Source of the DNA: an uncultured Acidobacteriota bacterium | Lineage (GTDB): Bacteria > Acidobacteriota > Thermoanaerobaculia > Gp7-AA8 | DNA length: 64,000 nucleotides | Assembly: GCA_963822445.1 (NCBI GenBank) | Contig: CAWGHO010000001.1 | Coordinates: 896,001-960,000, forward strand | Reading direction: 5' to 3' | Shown here: positions 58,057 through 64,000 of the stretch, in pieces | Numbering within the stretch: the stretch's first letter is position 1 | Layout of the letters: every line of letters starts with the position of its first letter | The notes under the pieces: generated by a model | What the model was told of the DNA's origin: nothing | Seen by the model: the letters and a program-made list of their open reading frames with translations, nothing else | Database searches by the model: none | Translations under genes and position numbers: made by a program

Positions 58057-59923
58057 GCCCGTCGGGCGGAGAGGTCCGCTGCAGCAGAGGTCATGACAGT
58101 TTCCACCGAGTTTTCGTCAGCGTAGAGCTGATCGATGACGCTCTTGTATTTCTTGTCGATGTTCTTCCGTTTGACCTTCAGCGACGGCGTGATCTCGTCG
58201 TCTTCGATGCGTGAAGTCGCGCGGGAGCAGCGCGAAGCGGCGGATCTTCTCCTGCCGGTCGAGGTTCTGATTGAAGCGGTCGATCTCGCCCTGGATGAGT
58301 GCCTTGCGACGCCGTCGTGCTTGACCAGCTCTTCGTTCGATTTCGCGTGGATGCCGAGGGCCTCGGCCGTCGCGCTGCAGCTTCTCGAAGTTCGGAACGA
58401 TCAGCGCGGAGAGGTACTTGCGGCGGTCGCCGATCAGCACCGGCGTGCCGACGTACGGTGAGCTCTTGAGCAACGCTTCGAGCGGCTGCGGCGCGATGTT
58501 CTTGCCGTAGGCGTTGATGATGATGTCTTTCTTGCGGTCGGTGATCTTGAGGAAGCCGTCGCTTGTCGATCTCGCCGATGTCGCCGGTGTGGAACCAGCC
58601 TTCCGGATCGATGGCCTGGGCGGTGGATTCGGGGTTGTTCCAGTAGCCCTGCATGATGTGCGGGCCGCGCGAGAGGATCTCGCCGTCCGCGGCGATCTTC
58701 ACTTCGATGCCCTGGATGATCGGACCGACGCGTGCCGAGGCGCCGCCGCTTCGGGACGGTTGACGGCGATGACCGGCGAGGTCTCGGTGAGTCCGTAGCC
58801 TTCGAGGATCTCCACGCCCGCGCCGATGAAGAACGCGGCGAGTTCTGCGGAGAGCGGCGCGCCGCCGGAGACGACGTACTTCACGTTGCCGCCGAGGCGG
58901 GCGATGATCTTGCGAGAAGACCAGCTTGTCGGCGATGGCGGATTTGACCTTCAGGCCGAGGCTCATCGGCTTTCCTTCGATCCGATGTACGGCAACCGCT
59001 CCTCGGCCACTTTCAGCGCCCAATGGAAGATTTTCTGGCGCGCCGGCGGGCGCGGCGGCGACGTTGTCCATGCACGCGCGAGCGCATCTTCTCGAAGAGG
59101 CGGGGCACGGCCGCGAAGAACTGCGGCTTCACTTCCTGAAGGTTGTCCGCGACCTTGGTGACGTTCTCCGCGTACGCGATACAGCCGCCTTTGTAGAGGT
59201 AGAGGAAATCGACCATCCGCTCGAGGATGTGCGAGAGCGGAAGGATCGACAGAGCGACGTCGCCGGCCTGGAACGGAACGAATTCGCGCACGGCCATCAC
59301 GTTGCTGGTGATGTTGCCGTGCGTGAGCATCGCGCCCTTCGGATTGCCGGTCGTGCCGGATGTGTAGACGAGCGTGGCCAGATCGTCGGGTTTGCGGCGT
59401 CGCGCGCGAGGTCTCGAACCAGGTCGTGCCATGGGACTCCTCGAGCTTGCGCCCGCGATCGACGACTTCCTTGAACGTCAGCACGCCCTCGGGTTGCGGT
59501 GAAGGCGCGTCGCAGACGATGACGTTGTTGAGCGTGGGGACGTGCGAGCGGATCTCCAGGACCTTGTCGAGCTGCTCCTGATTCGAACAGATGACCGCCA
59601 CGGTTCCGGCGTCGTTGAGGATGTATTCGATCTGCCAGCCGAGCAGGGTCGGGTAGACCGGAACGGTGATCGCGCCGAAGCGGAGAGGATGGCGAAGTCG
59701 CCCATCGTCCACTCGGGACGGTTCTCGGAGAGGATGGCCACGCGGTCGCCGCGCTTTACGCCCAGATCGTTGAGCGCCGGTCGAAAGCCAGCGGACGGTG
59801 TCACGGAACTCCGGGAACGGTGACGTCGGCCCACCGCTGCCGCTCTTGTACTTCATGATCGCGGGACGATCGATGGAGCACGTGACGTCGTAGATGTCCG
59901 TTGAGCGTTTTGGGTTCCTGCAT
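58053..59923 (-). CDS. Long-chain fatty acid--CoA ligase, frameshifted
   Basis: 'SENRPEW', '[11 protein letters not shown]', 'LPLSHILER', 'SGGAPL', '[10 protein letters not shown]', 'GWFHTGDIG'; ends inferred across indels. Confidence 0.88.
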
Positions 59924-59986
59924 GCGTCCCCCTGCCCGATTTCGGTTGAAGCGGGGGGATCATACCCGGTCCGTCGGCACCTCGCG

Positions 59987-61337
59987 CTAGGCGACCTTGA
60001 TCCACTTCCAGAGCTCGGGAATCGTCGGCCGCTTGCCGTACGACAGGATGCCCACCCGGAAGATCTTCGCGGTGACCCAGAAGAAAACGAAGATCGTGGC
60101 GATGGAGACGACGATCGTCACGAGCACGTGCCATAAAGGCGGCTCGGTGACGAGCAATGCGGACGAACATGGTCATCGGCCCGAAGACCGGCGATAACGA
60201 GAACGCGACGGCGAACGGTGCATCTGGATTGAGGACGATCGGCATCATGAGGATCCAGGGCATCATCATGACGATCATGATCGGTCCGATGAACTGCTGG
60301 GCCTCGCGCTCGGTGTTGCAAGCCGCGCCGGCGATCGCGTAGACGCAGACGTAGGTCAGGTAGCCGAGGACGTAGAACAGGAGGAAGTAGACGAACACCA
60401 TCGGCCGGACGAACTGCCCGATGTTGATGTCCGCGACGGCGATCACGGCCGCGCCGAATGCGCCGACCAGGCCCATCATCGTCAGCCAGACGAAGACCTG
60501 GGTCAGGCCTGCCAACGCGAGCCCGAGGATTTTTCCGATGAGCAGCTCGCGCGGCGACATCGAGGAAATCAGCACCTCGACCACGCGGTCCGCTTTCTCC
60601 TGGACGATGCCGCGCATGATGTCCTGGCCGTAGATCAGCGTCGGCAGCACCAGCAACGCTCCGAACAGGAAGGCGAGGATGAAATTCAGCTCTCCGCCCT
60701 TTTTCTGTTCGCCGCTGCGCGAGAGCTGGACTCCGTTGACGGGGACGTCCTGCATGAGGTCATCGATGATGTCGGGGTTCATCCCCTTCTGGGTAAGGCG
60801 CAGACGCTGAATGGCTTTGTTGGCCATGCGCTGCAGACGTTCCTGCACGATCAACTCGGTGGCGGAGCGGCTGTAGTACGTGAACCGCGCGGTCTGGTTG
60901 TCGGTGAGGGCCGTCGGCGGAATGGCGAAAACGCCTTCCAGCTTGTCCGATGCGTCTTTGTCGGCGGCGAGACGGGTAAGGTAGGACTTGTTGCCGGTCT
61001 CCAGGTCTTTCCCGGAGAAATCAATGTATTCGAGATGCAGCTGGGTGGGCAGGTCGGGACCGCGACGGCGGCCGCTGAGGGCCTTCTGCGCTTCCTGCTG
61101 CACGTCCGATTTCTCCGGTTTCTCGTCTTCGGACGGCTTGGTGAAGGCATCCCGCAGTTTGCCGGTGCCGTCGAGGATGGCGATGCGCTTCTGGCCCATT
61201 CCCTTGGCCATGATCAGGCCGGGCACGATCATCAGGCCGGCCATGAGGAACGGGAAGATGAGCGTCATGATGATGAAGCTCTTCTTGCGAACGGTCTGCA
61301 GGTACTCGCGCTTGAGCACGGCGAACATCTTGTTCAT
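59987..61337 (-). CDS. ABC-2 permease (NatB/YhaP-like), one frameshift near the C-terminus
   Basis: 'KREY...VRKKSF', 'QEKADRVVEVL.SS', 'GKILG'; six TMs and a large periplasmic loop. Confidence 0.85.
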
Positions 61338-62265
61338 ACGGCCACCTCTTCGCTCGCGAGCGTTTCCGCTCCCGACTTTGTCGATGAAGATTTCCTCGAG
61401 AGAGGGGGCGGCGATCTCGAACTTGCGGATGCGCACGCGGGACATGCAGGCCTCGAGGATCGCCTGCGGATCGCCTCCTTCGACGAGGCTGAGCTCCGCG
61501 CCGTGACCGACGATGGAGGCCTTCTGCACGTTCGGGAGGTCGCTGATGAACGCGCCGTCGCCGTCGAAGTCGATGTGGAGGGTGTTCTTCCCGAAGGACC
61601 CCTTGACCTGATCGAGGCTGCCTTCGAGCACGACCTTGCCGCGATGGATGAGGATGATCTCGTCGGCCATGCGCTCGGCCTCGCCCATCATGTGGGTGGA
61701 GAGGAGGATGGTCTTGCCCTCCTGCCGGAGATCGCGCAGGAGATTGCGGACGAGGACCATGTTGACGGGATCGAGTCCGGACTGGGGCTCGTCGAGGATG
61801 ATCAGGTCGGGGTCGTGGAGCAGGGTGCCGATGAGCTGGATCTTCTGCTGGTTGCCCTTGGACAGCTCTTCGACCTTGGCGTCGCGTTTCTCAGTGAGCT
61901 CGAAGCGCTCCAGCCAGTAGTCGATCTTGGGCCGCACGTCGGCGCCGCGCTTGTCTTTGATGGCCGCGAGGAAGACCAGCAGCTCGACGACTTTCATCTG
62001 CCGGTACAGCCCGCGCTCTTCGGGCAGGTAGCCGATGCGGTCGCGGAACGCGTTCGCCGCTTGCCTCACCAGCCAGCCACTGGATCTGACCCGAGTCCGG
62101 CATGAAGATGCCGGTGATCATGCGGATGGTCGTGGTCTTCCCGGCGCCATTCCGGCCGAGGAGGCCGGTGATGGTGCCTTTCCGGACGGTGAACGAAACC
62201 CCATCCACCGCCCGGACATCCCCAAACGTCTTCCGAACATCCCGAACCGCCAAAATATCGGCCAT
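61334..62265 (-). CDS. ABC ATP-binding protein (NatA/YhaQ-like), frameshifted and apparently fused to the permease
   Basis: Walker A GRNGAGKT in ORF 61891..62271; 'LSKGNQQK', 'LDEP.SGLDPVN', 'PSLEEIFI' in ORF 59853..62069. Confidence 0.85.
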
Positions 62266-62316
62266 ACCCATCCTTTGCGAAGCGACGGGTATTGTACGAG
62301 GGCGGGGGCCGGGGGT

Positions 62317-62520
62317 TTAGGGTCGGGGGGGCTGGGGCAGCGTGTCGTTCGTTGAGATACCGAAGAACTTCTGGAGATGCTTGACGATCTTGACGATCTT
62401 TGCAGGAAGGTCCTGTCCCCGATCATCGCGCGGACCGGCGGCGGCTGTGGGCCCCGCGGTTAGAGAAAGAACGACCGTAAAGACAAAAGCAGCAGCTACT
62501 CGTCGAGAAAATGACTTCAT
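62317..62520 (-). CDS. Small secreted peptide precursor (67 aa)
   Basis: AGGAGGG RBS; Sec signal ending TAAA; amphipathic helix 'LPAKIVKIVKHLQKFFG'; C-terminal 'NDTLPQPPRP'. Confidence 0.7.
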   Translation of the reverse strand: MKSFSRRVAAAFVFTVVLSLTAGPTAAAGPRDDRGQDLPAKIVKIVKHLQKFFGISTNDTLPQPPRP

Positions 62521-62622
62521 ACGCCCTCCTGCGGATGGTTAAGCGGGTCGGAGGGCGCGCCCTTGCTGTAGGTGTGACGCAGCGCGTCAAATCCCTACCT
62601 CAAAGGTTGCGATTTTCCGCGA

Positions 62623-63972
62623 TCAGGCCGGCGGAGGAGGCGCGAAGAGGAGGTTCGGTTGCTGGGGTAAGCGAGTCAGATACTCGCGGACGTGCCGAAC
62701 CAGCTTCGGAGTGGCGGATCGGTTGTGAGCTGCCTCTTTCATCAACGCTAACGCGGTGAGGGCGTGGGCGGTGTACGCCAAACCCTCTGCCTCGAGCAGT
62801 TGGATGGCAGTGCGGCAAATACTCTCTACGCTCTCAAAGTCGGCTTTGTGCGCGAGGAGGAGCTCGGCACGCTCCAGAGCCGCCTCGGTTGCCGAGCCGG
62901 CCATTCCGAAAGAGATGAATTCGGCTGCGATCGATTCGAGGCGCCGAATGGACTCCTCGGCCTGCCCCTCACTTCCCAGCATCGAGGCGATGTTCCATCT
63001 TGCTCGCGTCGCCGCTGGCTGATCTCCGATCAGTTCGAAGAGATCCGACGCAGCTTGTTGATATTGCATCGCCGCTGTCGTCCTACCCAGCCGGAAATTG
63101 CAGTAGCCGAGGTTCCCGAGGATCATCGCGTGAACGCGAGTGTTGCCAGTGCTTCGGACGACGGTCTCCAACGACGTCAACACATCATGGGCGGACGAGA
63201 ACTCGCCGCGGCTGAATTGGAGATTTACTTCCGCGAGTCGCGCTGAGATCTGTCGCGATACGTCACCGAATCTCTCGAAAACGCTGGCGCTCTCCCGCGC
63301 GTGACTCAAGGCGGAGGGGTACTGTTCGAGTTCTCGCTCGACGACGGCGTGGACAATCCCGAGACGGCTCATGTCGTAATCGGCAATGGCGCAAAGAGCG
63401 AAATGGTGGTCGGCGCGGGTGAGAGCTCTTTCGGCCTCCTGATATCGGCCACCGTAAAACAGCGCATACGCCCTCTCCCGCCACGCCGCCCCGCGTAACC
63501 GGGCGACTGTGTCGGAACGATAGCTCGTTGGCTCGAGTTGCTCGGCGATGTTGGTCGCCAGAGCGGTGATCTCCGCGGCGTCGGCCGGCATCGTGTCGAG
63601 AGCGCGATCGGTCGCGGCAATCAACCCCCTCACCACCCCCGCCGTCCGCCACTGCGGGTGCGCGGCCAGGTTCGCCATCCACGTCTCGCGCGGACCAGCG
63701 AGCAGCTCGGCCAGGTATCCCTGGGCGGCGGCGTCTTCGGCGGCCATGGTGTCGGCGAAGGCGCGGAGGGTGGCGATCGTGTTGGGGTTCGGGGCGGTGC
63801 TTACTTCGCGCTGGTTCCAGGTCGCGGCGTCGCGCAGGGCGGTGGTGACCATGCGGAAGTCTTCCAGGCGCTCGGCGCACTCGCCGCAGGCGGCCAGGTG
63901 GGGATCGGAATCCATCACCGGCGCGCCGAGCATCGTCACCAGAGCGTCTTCGTCGTAGTGCCGCTCGACCAT
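62623..63972 (-). CDS. Cytoplasmic protein with a zinc-finger anti-sigma-like N-terminus and TPR repeats
   Basis: 'H...HLAACGEC' (HxxxCxxC); TPR-like helices ('AWRERAYAL', 'ILGNLGYC', 'ARWNIA'); no TM; TGATG coupling to the upstream gene. Confidence 0.75.
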   Translation of the reverse strand: MVERHYDEDALVTMLGAPVMDSDPHLAACGECAERLEDFRMVTTALRDAATWNQREVSTAPNPNTIATLRAFADTMAAEDAAAQGYLAELLAGPRETWMANLAAHPQWRTAGVVRGLIAATDRALDTMPADAAEITALATNIAEQLEPTSYRSDTVARLRGAAWRERAYALFYGGRYQEAERALTRADHHFALCAIADYDMSRLGIVHAVVERELEQYPSALSHARESASVFERFGDVSRQISARLAEVNLQFSRGEFSSAHDVLTSLETVVRSTGNTRVHAMILGNLGYCNFRLGRTTAAMQYQQAASDLFELIGDQPAATRARWNIASMLGSEGQAEESIRRLESIAAEFISFGMAGSATEAALERAELLLAHKADFESVESICRTAIQLLEAEGLAYTAHALTALALMKEAAHNRSATPKLVRHVREYLTRLPQQPNLLFAPPPPA

Positions 63973-64000
63973 CACTTCTTCACCGCCGTGATGTTCATGT
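63972..64000 (-). CDS. 3' end of an upstream gene (...MNITAVKK*), identity not visible; possibly an ECF sigma factor
   Basis: Open frame ending in a TGA that overlaps the ATG at 63972. Confidence 0.35.

Follow-up and report, generated by a model that had tools for sequence, protein, structure and literature searches.

Sigma factors of the extracytoplasmic function (ECF) type are released mostly by membrane proteolysis, redox change or partner switching. Peptide signalling through cytoplasmic tetratricopeptide-repeat (TPR) receptors has, to our knowledge, been described mainly in Bacillota and their phages. Here we describe a locus at the end of a 64,000-nucleotide stretch of the genome of an uncultured, soil-type Acidobacteriota bacterium (hereafter the window, G000:C1:896001-960000, where G000 is the genome carrying it). 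The locus comprises an ECF sigma gene, a gene for a zinc-motif/TPR protein that is a putative anti-sigma factor, and a gene for a small, putatively exported peptide. An earlier note on this DNA, made from the sequence alone, had proposed a peptide-gated anti-sigma factor; the gene layout that it predicted was recovered, but a match to anti-sigma factors by hidden Markov model (HMM) or by fold was not. The unit that is kept across orthologues, paralogues, two orientations and non-homologous peptides is the TPR gene with the peptide gene, usually accompanied by the sigma gene. A functional partnership of the TPR protein and the peptide is hard to avoid, and we consider it very probable. More tentatively, in the reading that we favour among several, the TPR anti-sigma factor may have the peptide, or only the tail of the peptide, as its cognate ligand, and binding would gate the release of the sigma factor.

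In the text of the ECF reclassification, TPRs occur only in the C-terminal extension of ECF42 and in the FecR-like anti-sigma factor of ECF267 (PMC7826278), and the main texts of two surveys of RRNPP systems mention neither sigma factors nor hosts outside the Bacillota (PMC10075063, PMC9765709). No published description of a TPR anti-sigma factor with a partner peptide was found in the full-text literature covered, in line with the earlier note, whose author did not know of this architecture being described; the supplements of PMC7826278 may list the sigma group.

The sigma factor, the TPR protein and the peptide are all encoded on the minus strand of the window. Because the window could be placed at G000:C1:896001-960000, the gene cut at position 64000 was readable from the genome. 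Its stop codon (TGA) and the ATG of the TPR protein have one base in common (TGATG), the coupling that the earlier note had described. The open reading frame (ORF) of the TPR protein runs from an ATG at 63972 to a stop at 62623, and a 450-amino-acid (aa) form would start from a GTG at 63975. From the stop of the 449-aa ORF it is 102 nucleotides (nt) to the start of a 67-aa ORF behind AGGAGGG, which matches the same-strand ORF placed about 100 bp downstream. The motif reported as H-x(20)-HxxxCxxC is present, with a true spacing of H-x19. The difference in G+C content at third codon positions (GC3) was also upheld: GC3 falls from 0.88-0.89 in residues 1-150 of the TPR protein to 0.69-0.71 in residues 151-450, and it is 0.59 in the peptide gene, so that the TPR half and the peptide gene lie below the N-terminal half; the sigma gene has 0.83.

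The gene cut by the window edge encodes an ECF (group 4) sigma-70 factor. Regions 2 and 4, which were expected if the upstream gene encoded a sigma factor, were found as Pfam Sigma70_r2 (residues 73-138; 31.3 bits, cut-off 24) and Sigma70_r4_2 (residues 165-215; 31.3 bits, cut-off 25.7), and TIGR02937 scored 56.9 bits (cut-off 42.9). None of the ECF subgroup models run on the protein reached its cut-off. Thirty related loci were taken from the searched genomes of the same GTDB family. A sigma match lies directly 5' of the TPR gene in 29 of the 30, and the remaining locus (L029) ends at a contig edge. The sigma factor is about 75% identical to the window copy (28 related loci) and the TPR protein about 47%. 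Ahead of region 2, the sigma factor carries an Ala/Pro/Lys-rich N-terminal extension of about 65 aa (L001:3173-3862, minus strand). Immediately 5' of the sigma ATG, GAAACGTGGTAACGTG is conserved in the aligned orthologous loci (within 20 nt upstream), and this stretch contains no obvious Shine-Dalgarno site; a similar CGTGGTAAGGT stands upstream of paralogous sigma genes. The idea of one promoter type for both the sigma operon and the peptide gene was dropped, since what is conserved upstream of the sigma genes is a different sequence.

The small secreted ORF with a P-x-P tail that the earlier note expected next to homologues of the TPR gene was present in all 27 orthologous loci whose downstream DNA extends for 300 nt or more (26 of 26 once L016, from the unpublished genome G002, was left out). 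These ORFs have the same build, are 59-79 aa long and start 48-118 nt past the TPR stop (n=27). The flank is short at the other three loci; in two of these the beginning of the ORF is visible where the contig ends. An HMM of the peptide matched 33 of the 34 genomes of the genus, with 1-8 copies each. Beyond the genus it matched a single further genus within the family, and 24 genomes from other families gave just one weak match (E 0.0014, one genome). We also picked 26 paralogous loci by peptide match alone (E<1e-5), with no TPR neighbour among the matches listed and with unpublished genomes excluded. A TPR paralogue adjoins the peptide gene in 25 of them, and the 26th is a 2.7-kb contig. Five of the 25 pairs are co-directional and 20 are convergent with abutting 3' ends, and therefore the link between the TPR and peptide genes is independent of one operon layout. 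The TPR gene has a sigma match directly 5' in 15 of the 25 loci, and pairs of zinc-motif/TPR and peptide genes without an adjacent sigma gene were found at G000:C1:1027743-1029392 (+), L033, L035 and L044. Two tandem peptide genes occur at L034, L048 and L052. Tandem peptides differ slightly in their tails (for example, ...VIPWP and ...IVPLP), and G036:C3:156705-157277 has three successive peptide matches beside one TPR gene.

Small ORFs in other families were sought with a crude filter for a hydrophobic N-terminus together with a model of the leader described below. In a second family of the order, four of five sigma/TPR loci are followed by ORFs of 53-62 aa with a hydrophobic, signal-peptide-like N-terminus and acidic ends such as ...PxGDD. 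A small ORF was not found at the locus from a further family (f13); L060 and L062 are loci without one. The small ORFs of the second family have no detectable relation to the peptide family of the window and barely any to each other (BLASTP E 0.27).

The window peptide has an n-region with K/RR, a hydrophobic core (12-residue Kyte-Doolittle mean 2.51) and a small-x-small site (AAG|PRD), which together suggest a signal peptide of about residues 1-29. After this come a charged stretch, then an amphipathic helix (KIVKIVKHLQKFFG) with a hydrophobic moment of 0.66, and finally the tail TLPQPPRP. Signal-peptide features, called by a crude rule-based check rather than by SignalP, were present in 55 of 55 peptides, whose medians are a mature part of 40 aa, a net charge of +4 and a helix hydrophobic moment of 0.83. 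All 38 peptide clusters are 'hypothetical' or unnamed and have no Pfam domain. A HMMER scan retrieved 545 representatives of the peptide family at E<=0.001, including 141 at E<=1e-10. Lengths, tails and the consensus were taken from the best 150 of these 545 representatives. They are 54-101 aa long; 137 end in Pro, 148 have P-x-P in the last 12 residues, and there are 78 distinct last-five tails. The consensus consists of the signal peptide, a charged stretch, the helix I-V-R-I-I-K-K-I-Q-K-F-F-G and the tail D-x-P-x-P-P-[RK]-P. In the tail, the information content is 4.0-4.3 bits at the prolines and 1.0 bit at each of the two x positions; the helix is conserved as strongly as the tail.

A conserved element precedes the peptide gene. 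It includes a promoter-like part (GGTAGGGA-N-CAC(A/T)CC at 62571-62599), a palindrome with an anti-Shine-Dalgarno stretch (62550-62562) and a Shine-Dalgarno site, AGGAGGGCG, immediately before the ATG. The order GGTAGGGAT, variable spacer, GTCAC(T/A)CC, 7-9 nt, AGGGCGCGCCCTCC, spacer and AGGAGGGCGT-ATG was found in 26 of 27 orthologous intergenic regions. According to RNAalifold and RNAfold, CGCCCUCC pairs with the Shine-Dalgarno site GGAGGGCG in nearly every sequence, and the palindrome can alternatively fold on itself. RNAalifold counted compensatory pairs at 0 of 11; the pairing of CGCCCUCC with GGAGGGCG has no covariation support because both partners are invariant. A comparison of 62200-62800 with Rfam returned nothing at E<=1. 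With a covariance model (R1) for which only the orthologues were used, 33 other loci yielded 27 matches at E<=1; a small ORF follows directly on 23 of them, and the two best matches come from the other family. The same leader was seen in two GTDB families (L059:2919-3026, L063:2606-2712, L064 and L068:1363-1464). A leader that sequesters the Shine-Dalgarno site appears to be conserved even though the peptides behind it show no detectable homology, and it may represent a type of translational control not yet described.

The core motif with the palindrome occurs twice in G000, each time before a peptide gene. The promoter-like motif by itself (GGTAGGG[AG]-N11-17-nCAC[TA]C[CT], the GGTAGGGA-N-CACTCC class) has 30 sites in G000 compared with 7-8 in shuffled sequence. 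It is nearly fixed in length at 29-30 nt and usually stands 13-50 nt before the start codons of unrelated genes; it is a general class and not specific to the module. One gene behind such a motif reads as MetK-like by its first residues. We had considered the GGGA/TCAC hairpin upstream of the peptide gene as a covarying RNA stem and dropped it, as the same GGTAGGGA-N-CACTCC spacing precedes unrelated genes; a promoter-like element is the better reading. None of the 11 pairs is compensatory.

Spurious ORFs are abundant on every strand of this G+C-rich DNA, and we therefore considered whether the small ORF is one of them and its synteny mere inherited order. Several features of the sequences speak against this. 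The ORF has a strong Shine-Dalgarno site, and related peptides that are 27-57% identical to the window copy keep its length, signal peptide, helix and tail. All of the best 150 of the 545 family representatives are small, the leader is conserved across families, and adjacency to a TPR gene was recovered independently in 25 of the 26 paralogous loci. Judged by these comparisons, a chance origin can be taken as refuted for practical purposes.

The TPR protein carries H5 followed by H25-L-A-A-C29-G-E-C32. All 64 homologues compared, and all 29 N-termini of orthologues, have the same four residues H5, H25, C29 and C32. The only Pfam matches are to TPR families (TPR_12, 31.3 bits, cut-off 30.1). 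The protein had been described as soluble, which agrees with a Kyte-Doolittle scan that found no membrane helix (top 19-residue mean 1.15). The family comprises at least 417 clusters, and the named ones come from metagenome bins of Acidobacteriota or Thermoanaerobaculia. AlphaFold2 predicted an all-helical protein with a mean predicted local distance difference test (pLDDT) score of 92.7 and about eight hairpins over residues 155-416. Among Protein Data Bank entries, the top Foldseek matches of the superhelix were RapH, RapF, the Rap proteins of phage phi3T and pLS20, and LGN/Pins (E about 1e-5, TMq 0.41-0.58). Sequence-profile comparison retrieved LGN/Pins (E 1e-11 to 1e-12), kinesin light chain (KLC; about 1e-6 to 1e-7), RapJ (E 1.8e-06) and RapI/RapF (about 1e-3). 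Rap receptors, LGN/Pins and KLC are TPR superhelices that hold peptides in their inner groove. The likeness of the modelled protein to Rap and LGN is one of fold class and no proof of descent.

Pfam scans of the whole protein at E<=1, and of residues 1-100 and of 1-140 at E<=10, found neither a helix-turn-helix (HTH) family nor the anti-sigma model zf-HC2. When residues 1-135 were modelled separately, the pLDDT was 87, and Foldseek returned nothing for this model at E<=0.001. With VIA-align, residues 4-58 matched RslA (3hug_B; Z 3.6, root-mean-square deviation (rmsd) 4.7, 54 aligned, 24% identity) and residues 6-54 matched RseA (1or7_F; Z 3.6, rmsd 4.2, 48 aligned); these matches sit among many tied rows at Z 3.4-4.7, that is, at noise level. 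We use the label 'anti-sigma' because of the gene coupling and the invariant zinc-type motif. Membership in the zinc-associated anti-sigma (ZAS) family is likewise supported by motif and gene context, not by HMM or fold. The 64 homologues also share a conserved C-terminal tail, LLFAPPP, in which F443 is invariant and L441 and L442 occur in at least 90% (window 62623-62670, minus strand). In its Pro content, this C-terminus (LLFAPPP...) resembles the tail of the peptide. As pure speculation, the C-terminus of the anti-sigma factor could fill its own TPR groove until displaced.

We compared rates of change in 26 orthologous triads. Mean pairwise identity is 85% for the sigma core (residues 68-225), 50% for the zinc-motif segment, 60% for the linker helices, 45% for the TPR region and 33% for the mature peptide, and the TPR region is thus the most divergent part of the zinc-motif/TPR protein. 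Distances between peptides correlate with those between TPR regions (Mantel r 0.39, p 0.0005). The correlation persists given the sigma factor (r 0.34, p 0.001) and given the N-terminal 150 residues (r 0.25, p 0.007), and the value for peptide and sigma distances given the TPR region is 0.05. The co-variation of receptor and peptide that the earlier note suggested examining is therefore present, but it is weak (r 0.39; partial 0.34).

These observations could be brought together as follows. The ECF sigma factor would be held by a cytoplasmic anti-sigma factor whose short N-terminal zinc-motif segment binds it, and the large TPR superhelix of the same protein would be the sensor. The neighbouring gene would supply the cognate ligand, a Sec-exported peptide of about 40 aa. 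Either this peptide or its D-x-P-x-P-P-[RK]-P fragment, with two hypervariable positions, would bind inside the superhelix and alter how tightly the sigma factor is held. Most likely, the peptide would be exported, trimmed by proteolysis and then taken up again, the route known from Rap-Phr, PlcR-PapR and AimR-AimP, and its translation would be gated by the leader that sequesters its Shine-Dalgarno site. In this scheme we infer the binding of the sigma factor by the zinc-motif segment, the binding of the peptide by the TPR region, its processing and re-import, and the direction of the effect. A complex prediction with the anti-sigma factor and peptide residues 29-67 scored 0.09 (mark 0.32), which argues neither for nor against binding.

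Several points weigh against peptide gating of this kind. Acidobacteriota are diderm, and a re-imported signal would have to pass the outer membrane on its way out and again on its way in. Conservation extends over the whole mature peptide, which has a cationic amphipathic helix as in membrane-active peptides; RRNPP pro-regions are typically unlike this, and an effector peptide would be an equally good fit. Across the paralogous sequences P-P-[RK]-P is near-invariant, which limits how much specificity the tail could encode. The peptide gene has its own promoter-like motif and may not need to belong to the sigma operon. For neighbouring, co-inherited and fast-evolving genes some co-variation is expected without contact, and the correlation reported above lends the reading weak support. 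The N-terminus of the TPR protein lacks a match to an anti-sigma HMM. No protease or importer was found in the module, either among the neighbours of the orthologous loci or at the paralogous locus L045. In favour of the reading, G000 encodes six OppA-type binding proteins, so that peptide uptake is at least possible. A last point against it is that in the window's own genome a recognizable peptide accompanies three of six TPR paralogues; the other three have no recognizable peptide within 900 nt. Two paralogues of the window peptide are encoded in G000, at C1:1029225-1029392 and C3:1071141-1071326. A more distant TPR paralogue of 383 aa at G000:C2:526908-528589 (+) has no zinc motif, and no peptide was found for it. 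The ORF directly before it ends where the TPR ORF starts and has an N-terminus that is XRE-type HTH-like by eye; the two may be a split or fused HTH-TPR regulator.

The difficulty of re-import would disappear if the TPR protein bound the precursor before export, so that the sigma factor reported the balance between peptide synthesis and Sec export. We consider this quite unlikely, although it would account for the conservation of the whole mature part of about 40 aa, helix and tail together, and would suit the tight translational control that the leader implies. The LGN/Pins-type superhelices among the best fold matches enclose ligands of roughly this length. Similar logic exists in FlgM/sigma-28, in TPR secretion chaperones such as IpgC and in SecM-type monitoring substrates. 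A propeptide that acts inside the cell has a precedent in the account of ComRS given in PMC6211226. Sec export is constitutive, however, and the signal being sensed is hard to name; several diverged pairs per genome would also be odd for one global secretion signal.

The gene that follows bears on two further alternatives. An ABC-2 ATPase starts 45 nt past the peptide stop, and it is the next gene after the peptide in 20 of 27 orthologous loci, mostly at 45-111 nt; at the other seven, no ATPase was found within the stretch examined. In the window, positions 2-53 of the ABC_tran profile fall in one ORF and positions 54-136 in the next frame, with the break near 62070-62100, and orthologues align straight through this first break. 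The frame also shifts in the C-terminus of the permease near 60150 (window 59853-62271, minus strand; ORF 59987-60157). Rather than marking a pseudogene, the breaks may stem from indel errors in the assembly (the genome is in three contigs).

ABC-2 transporters serve as immunity pumps for some bacteriocins, ECF sigma loci often carry an adjacent target gene, and the Pro/Arg-rich tail loosely recalls proline-rich antimicrobial peptides. The peptide might be the output of the switch rather than its input, that is, a secreted cationic amphipathic effector (a Sec-dependent, bacteriocin-like peptide or one for envelope stress) whose gene is inherited together with its regulator; the TPR region would then sense another cytoplasmic cue or protein. 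The signal peptide in 55 of 55 sequences, the strongly amphipathic mature part of about 40 aa with a charge of +4, a helix as conserved as the tail and the frequent ABC-2 neighbour would all suit such an effector. It is the main alternative, but we consider it fairly unlikely. Peptide distances follow the TPR region and not the sigma factor, and the peptide gene stays with the TPR gene at loci that lack a neighbouring sigma gene. The presence of several diverged copies per genome, each with a TPR partner, suits pairs of receptor and ligand better. At L045, which is convergent and was the only paralogous locus inspected, there is no transporter or immunity gene, and the neighbours look housekeeping-like (TrmB-like and RsgA-like by eye from ORF translations).

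The peptide could also be a leader or arrest peptide whose Pro-rich C-terminus stalls the ribosome and controls the ABC transporter 45 nt downstream in cis. P-P-x-P before a stop codon is unfavourable for elongation and termination, and the known monitoring substrates are small proteins that are exported and have arrest motifs containing Pro. Where an ATPase is present (20 loci), the peptide stop mostly lies 45-111 nt before its start. This explanation is very improbable: it leaves out the seven orthologous loci without an ATPase, and in the 20 convergent loci the 3' end of the TPR gene comes straight after the peptide gene, which leaves nothing downstream to regulate. The coordinates of all features are collected in Table 1.

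Table 1. Coordinates of the sigma/TPR/peptide locus and of related features. Positions are those of the window unless a contig is named.
Feature	Position	Strand	Evidence or source
ECF sigma gene, 3' end	63972..64000	-	Pfam, TIGR02937
Whole ECF sigma gene, 229 aa	G000:C1:959972-960661 = window-equivalent 63972-64661		Read from L001:3173-3862(-)
Zinc-motif/TPR protein, putative anti-sigma factor, 449 aa	62623..63972	-	Invariant H/H/C/C, TPR Pfam, AlphaFold2
H-x19-HxxxCxxC segment, residues 1-47, proposed zinc-binding anti-sigma domain	63832..63972	-	Invariant ligand set
TPR-like superhelix, residues ~151-420, proposed sensor	62713..63522	-	AlphaFold2, Foldseek, sequence profile
Conserved upstream element of the peptide gene	62509..62600	-	Alignment, folding, covariance model
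Small, putatively exported peptide gene, 67 aa	62317..62520	-	ORF, signal-peptide features, family conservation
ABC-2 transporter ATPase start (outside the core module)	61891..62271	-	Pfam ABC_tran
Promoter-like motif, example	C1:958571-958599 = window 62571-62599	-	G000 motif scan
Promoter-like motif, further examples	C3:273911-273939; C2:63363-63391	+; +	G000 motif scan

A soluble anti-sigma factor with a TPR sensor of the peptide-binding type and a fast-evolving exported peptide as its constant partner would unite the ECF and peptide-signalling paradigms. Peptide sensing could then be put to a direct test in a diderm phylum that has been poorly studied and is mostly uncultured. The sigma factor, the anti-sigma factor, a reporter and a synthetic peptide form a set small enough to be rebuilt in E. 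coli, and the natural paralogous pairs are a ready-made set of possibly orthogonal switches. The wider proposal is rather doubtful: a large Acidobacteriota family of peptide-gated ECF switches with several private Sec-exported peptides per cell, whose D-x-P-x-P-P-[RK]-P tails would be read by cognate TPR anti-sigma factors after processing and uptake. If true, it would be the first case of RRNPP-style peptide communication (through a cytoplasmic receptor) in a diderm phylum, and the first such system with sigma release as its direct output. Even if the peptide is an effector, the analysis adds a widespread family of small proteins that has no name yet (545 clusters), together with a translational leader that is conserved.

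Three described systems invite comparison. LGN/Pins with its Insc, NuMA or Frmpd ligands gave the best TM-scores (TMq up to 0.58) and the best profile matches. Its eight-repeat superhelix encloses a ligand of 30-40 aa made of a helix and an extended stretch, which is also the build of the mature peptide here. It is unlike the present protein in being a eukaryotic polarity scaffold, and no relation of function or descent is implied. The ZAS pairs RsrA-SigR, RslA-SigL and ChrR-SigE are similar in that a soluble H...HxxxCxxC protein is coupled after the ECF sigma gene, and ChrR follows the same plan as the protein here, an N-terminal binding module and a separate C-terminal (cupin) sensor. Unlike in these pairs, the N-terminal segment is short and without an anti-sigma Pfam match, and the sensor is a TPR superhelix of about 300 aa with a dedicated gene for an exported peptide.

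The comparison with the RRNPP(A) systems (Rap-Phr, NprR-NprX, PlcR-PapR, PrgX and AimR-AimP) cuts both ways. The RRNPP layout claimed in the earlier note holds for the receptor and the small exported-peptide gene, but not for an RRNPP output domain: the output part here is the HxxxCxxC segment and neither an HTH nor the N-terminal bundle of Rap. The similarity is also to TPRs in general, with LGN/Pins and KLC outscoring Rap by sequence, and the diderm host and the conservation of the whole mature peptide set the locus further apart. We use 'RRNPP-like' for an analogy of layout and logic, not for membership or ancestry. Within that analogy, the locus shares with RRNPP(A) systems a cytoplasmic TPR receptor encoded beside a small gene for a Sec-exported propeptide and many diverged paralogous pairs in variable orientation, some of them with tandem propeptide genes, and Rap proteins are among the top structural matches of its TPR protein.

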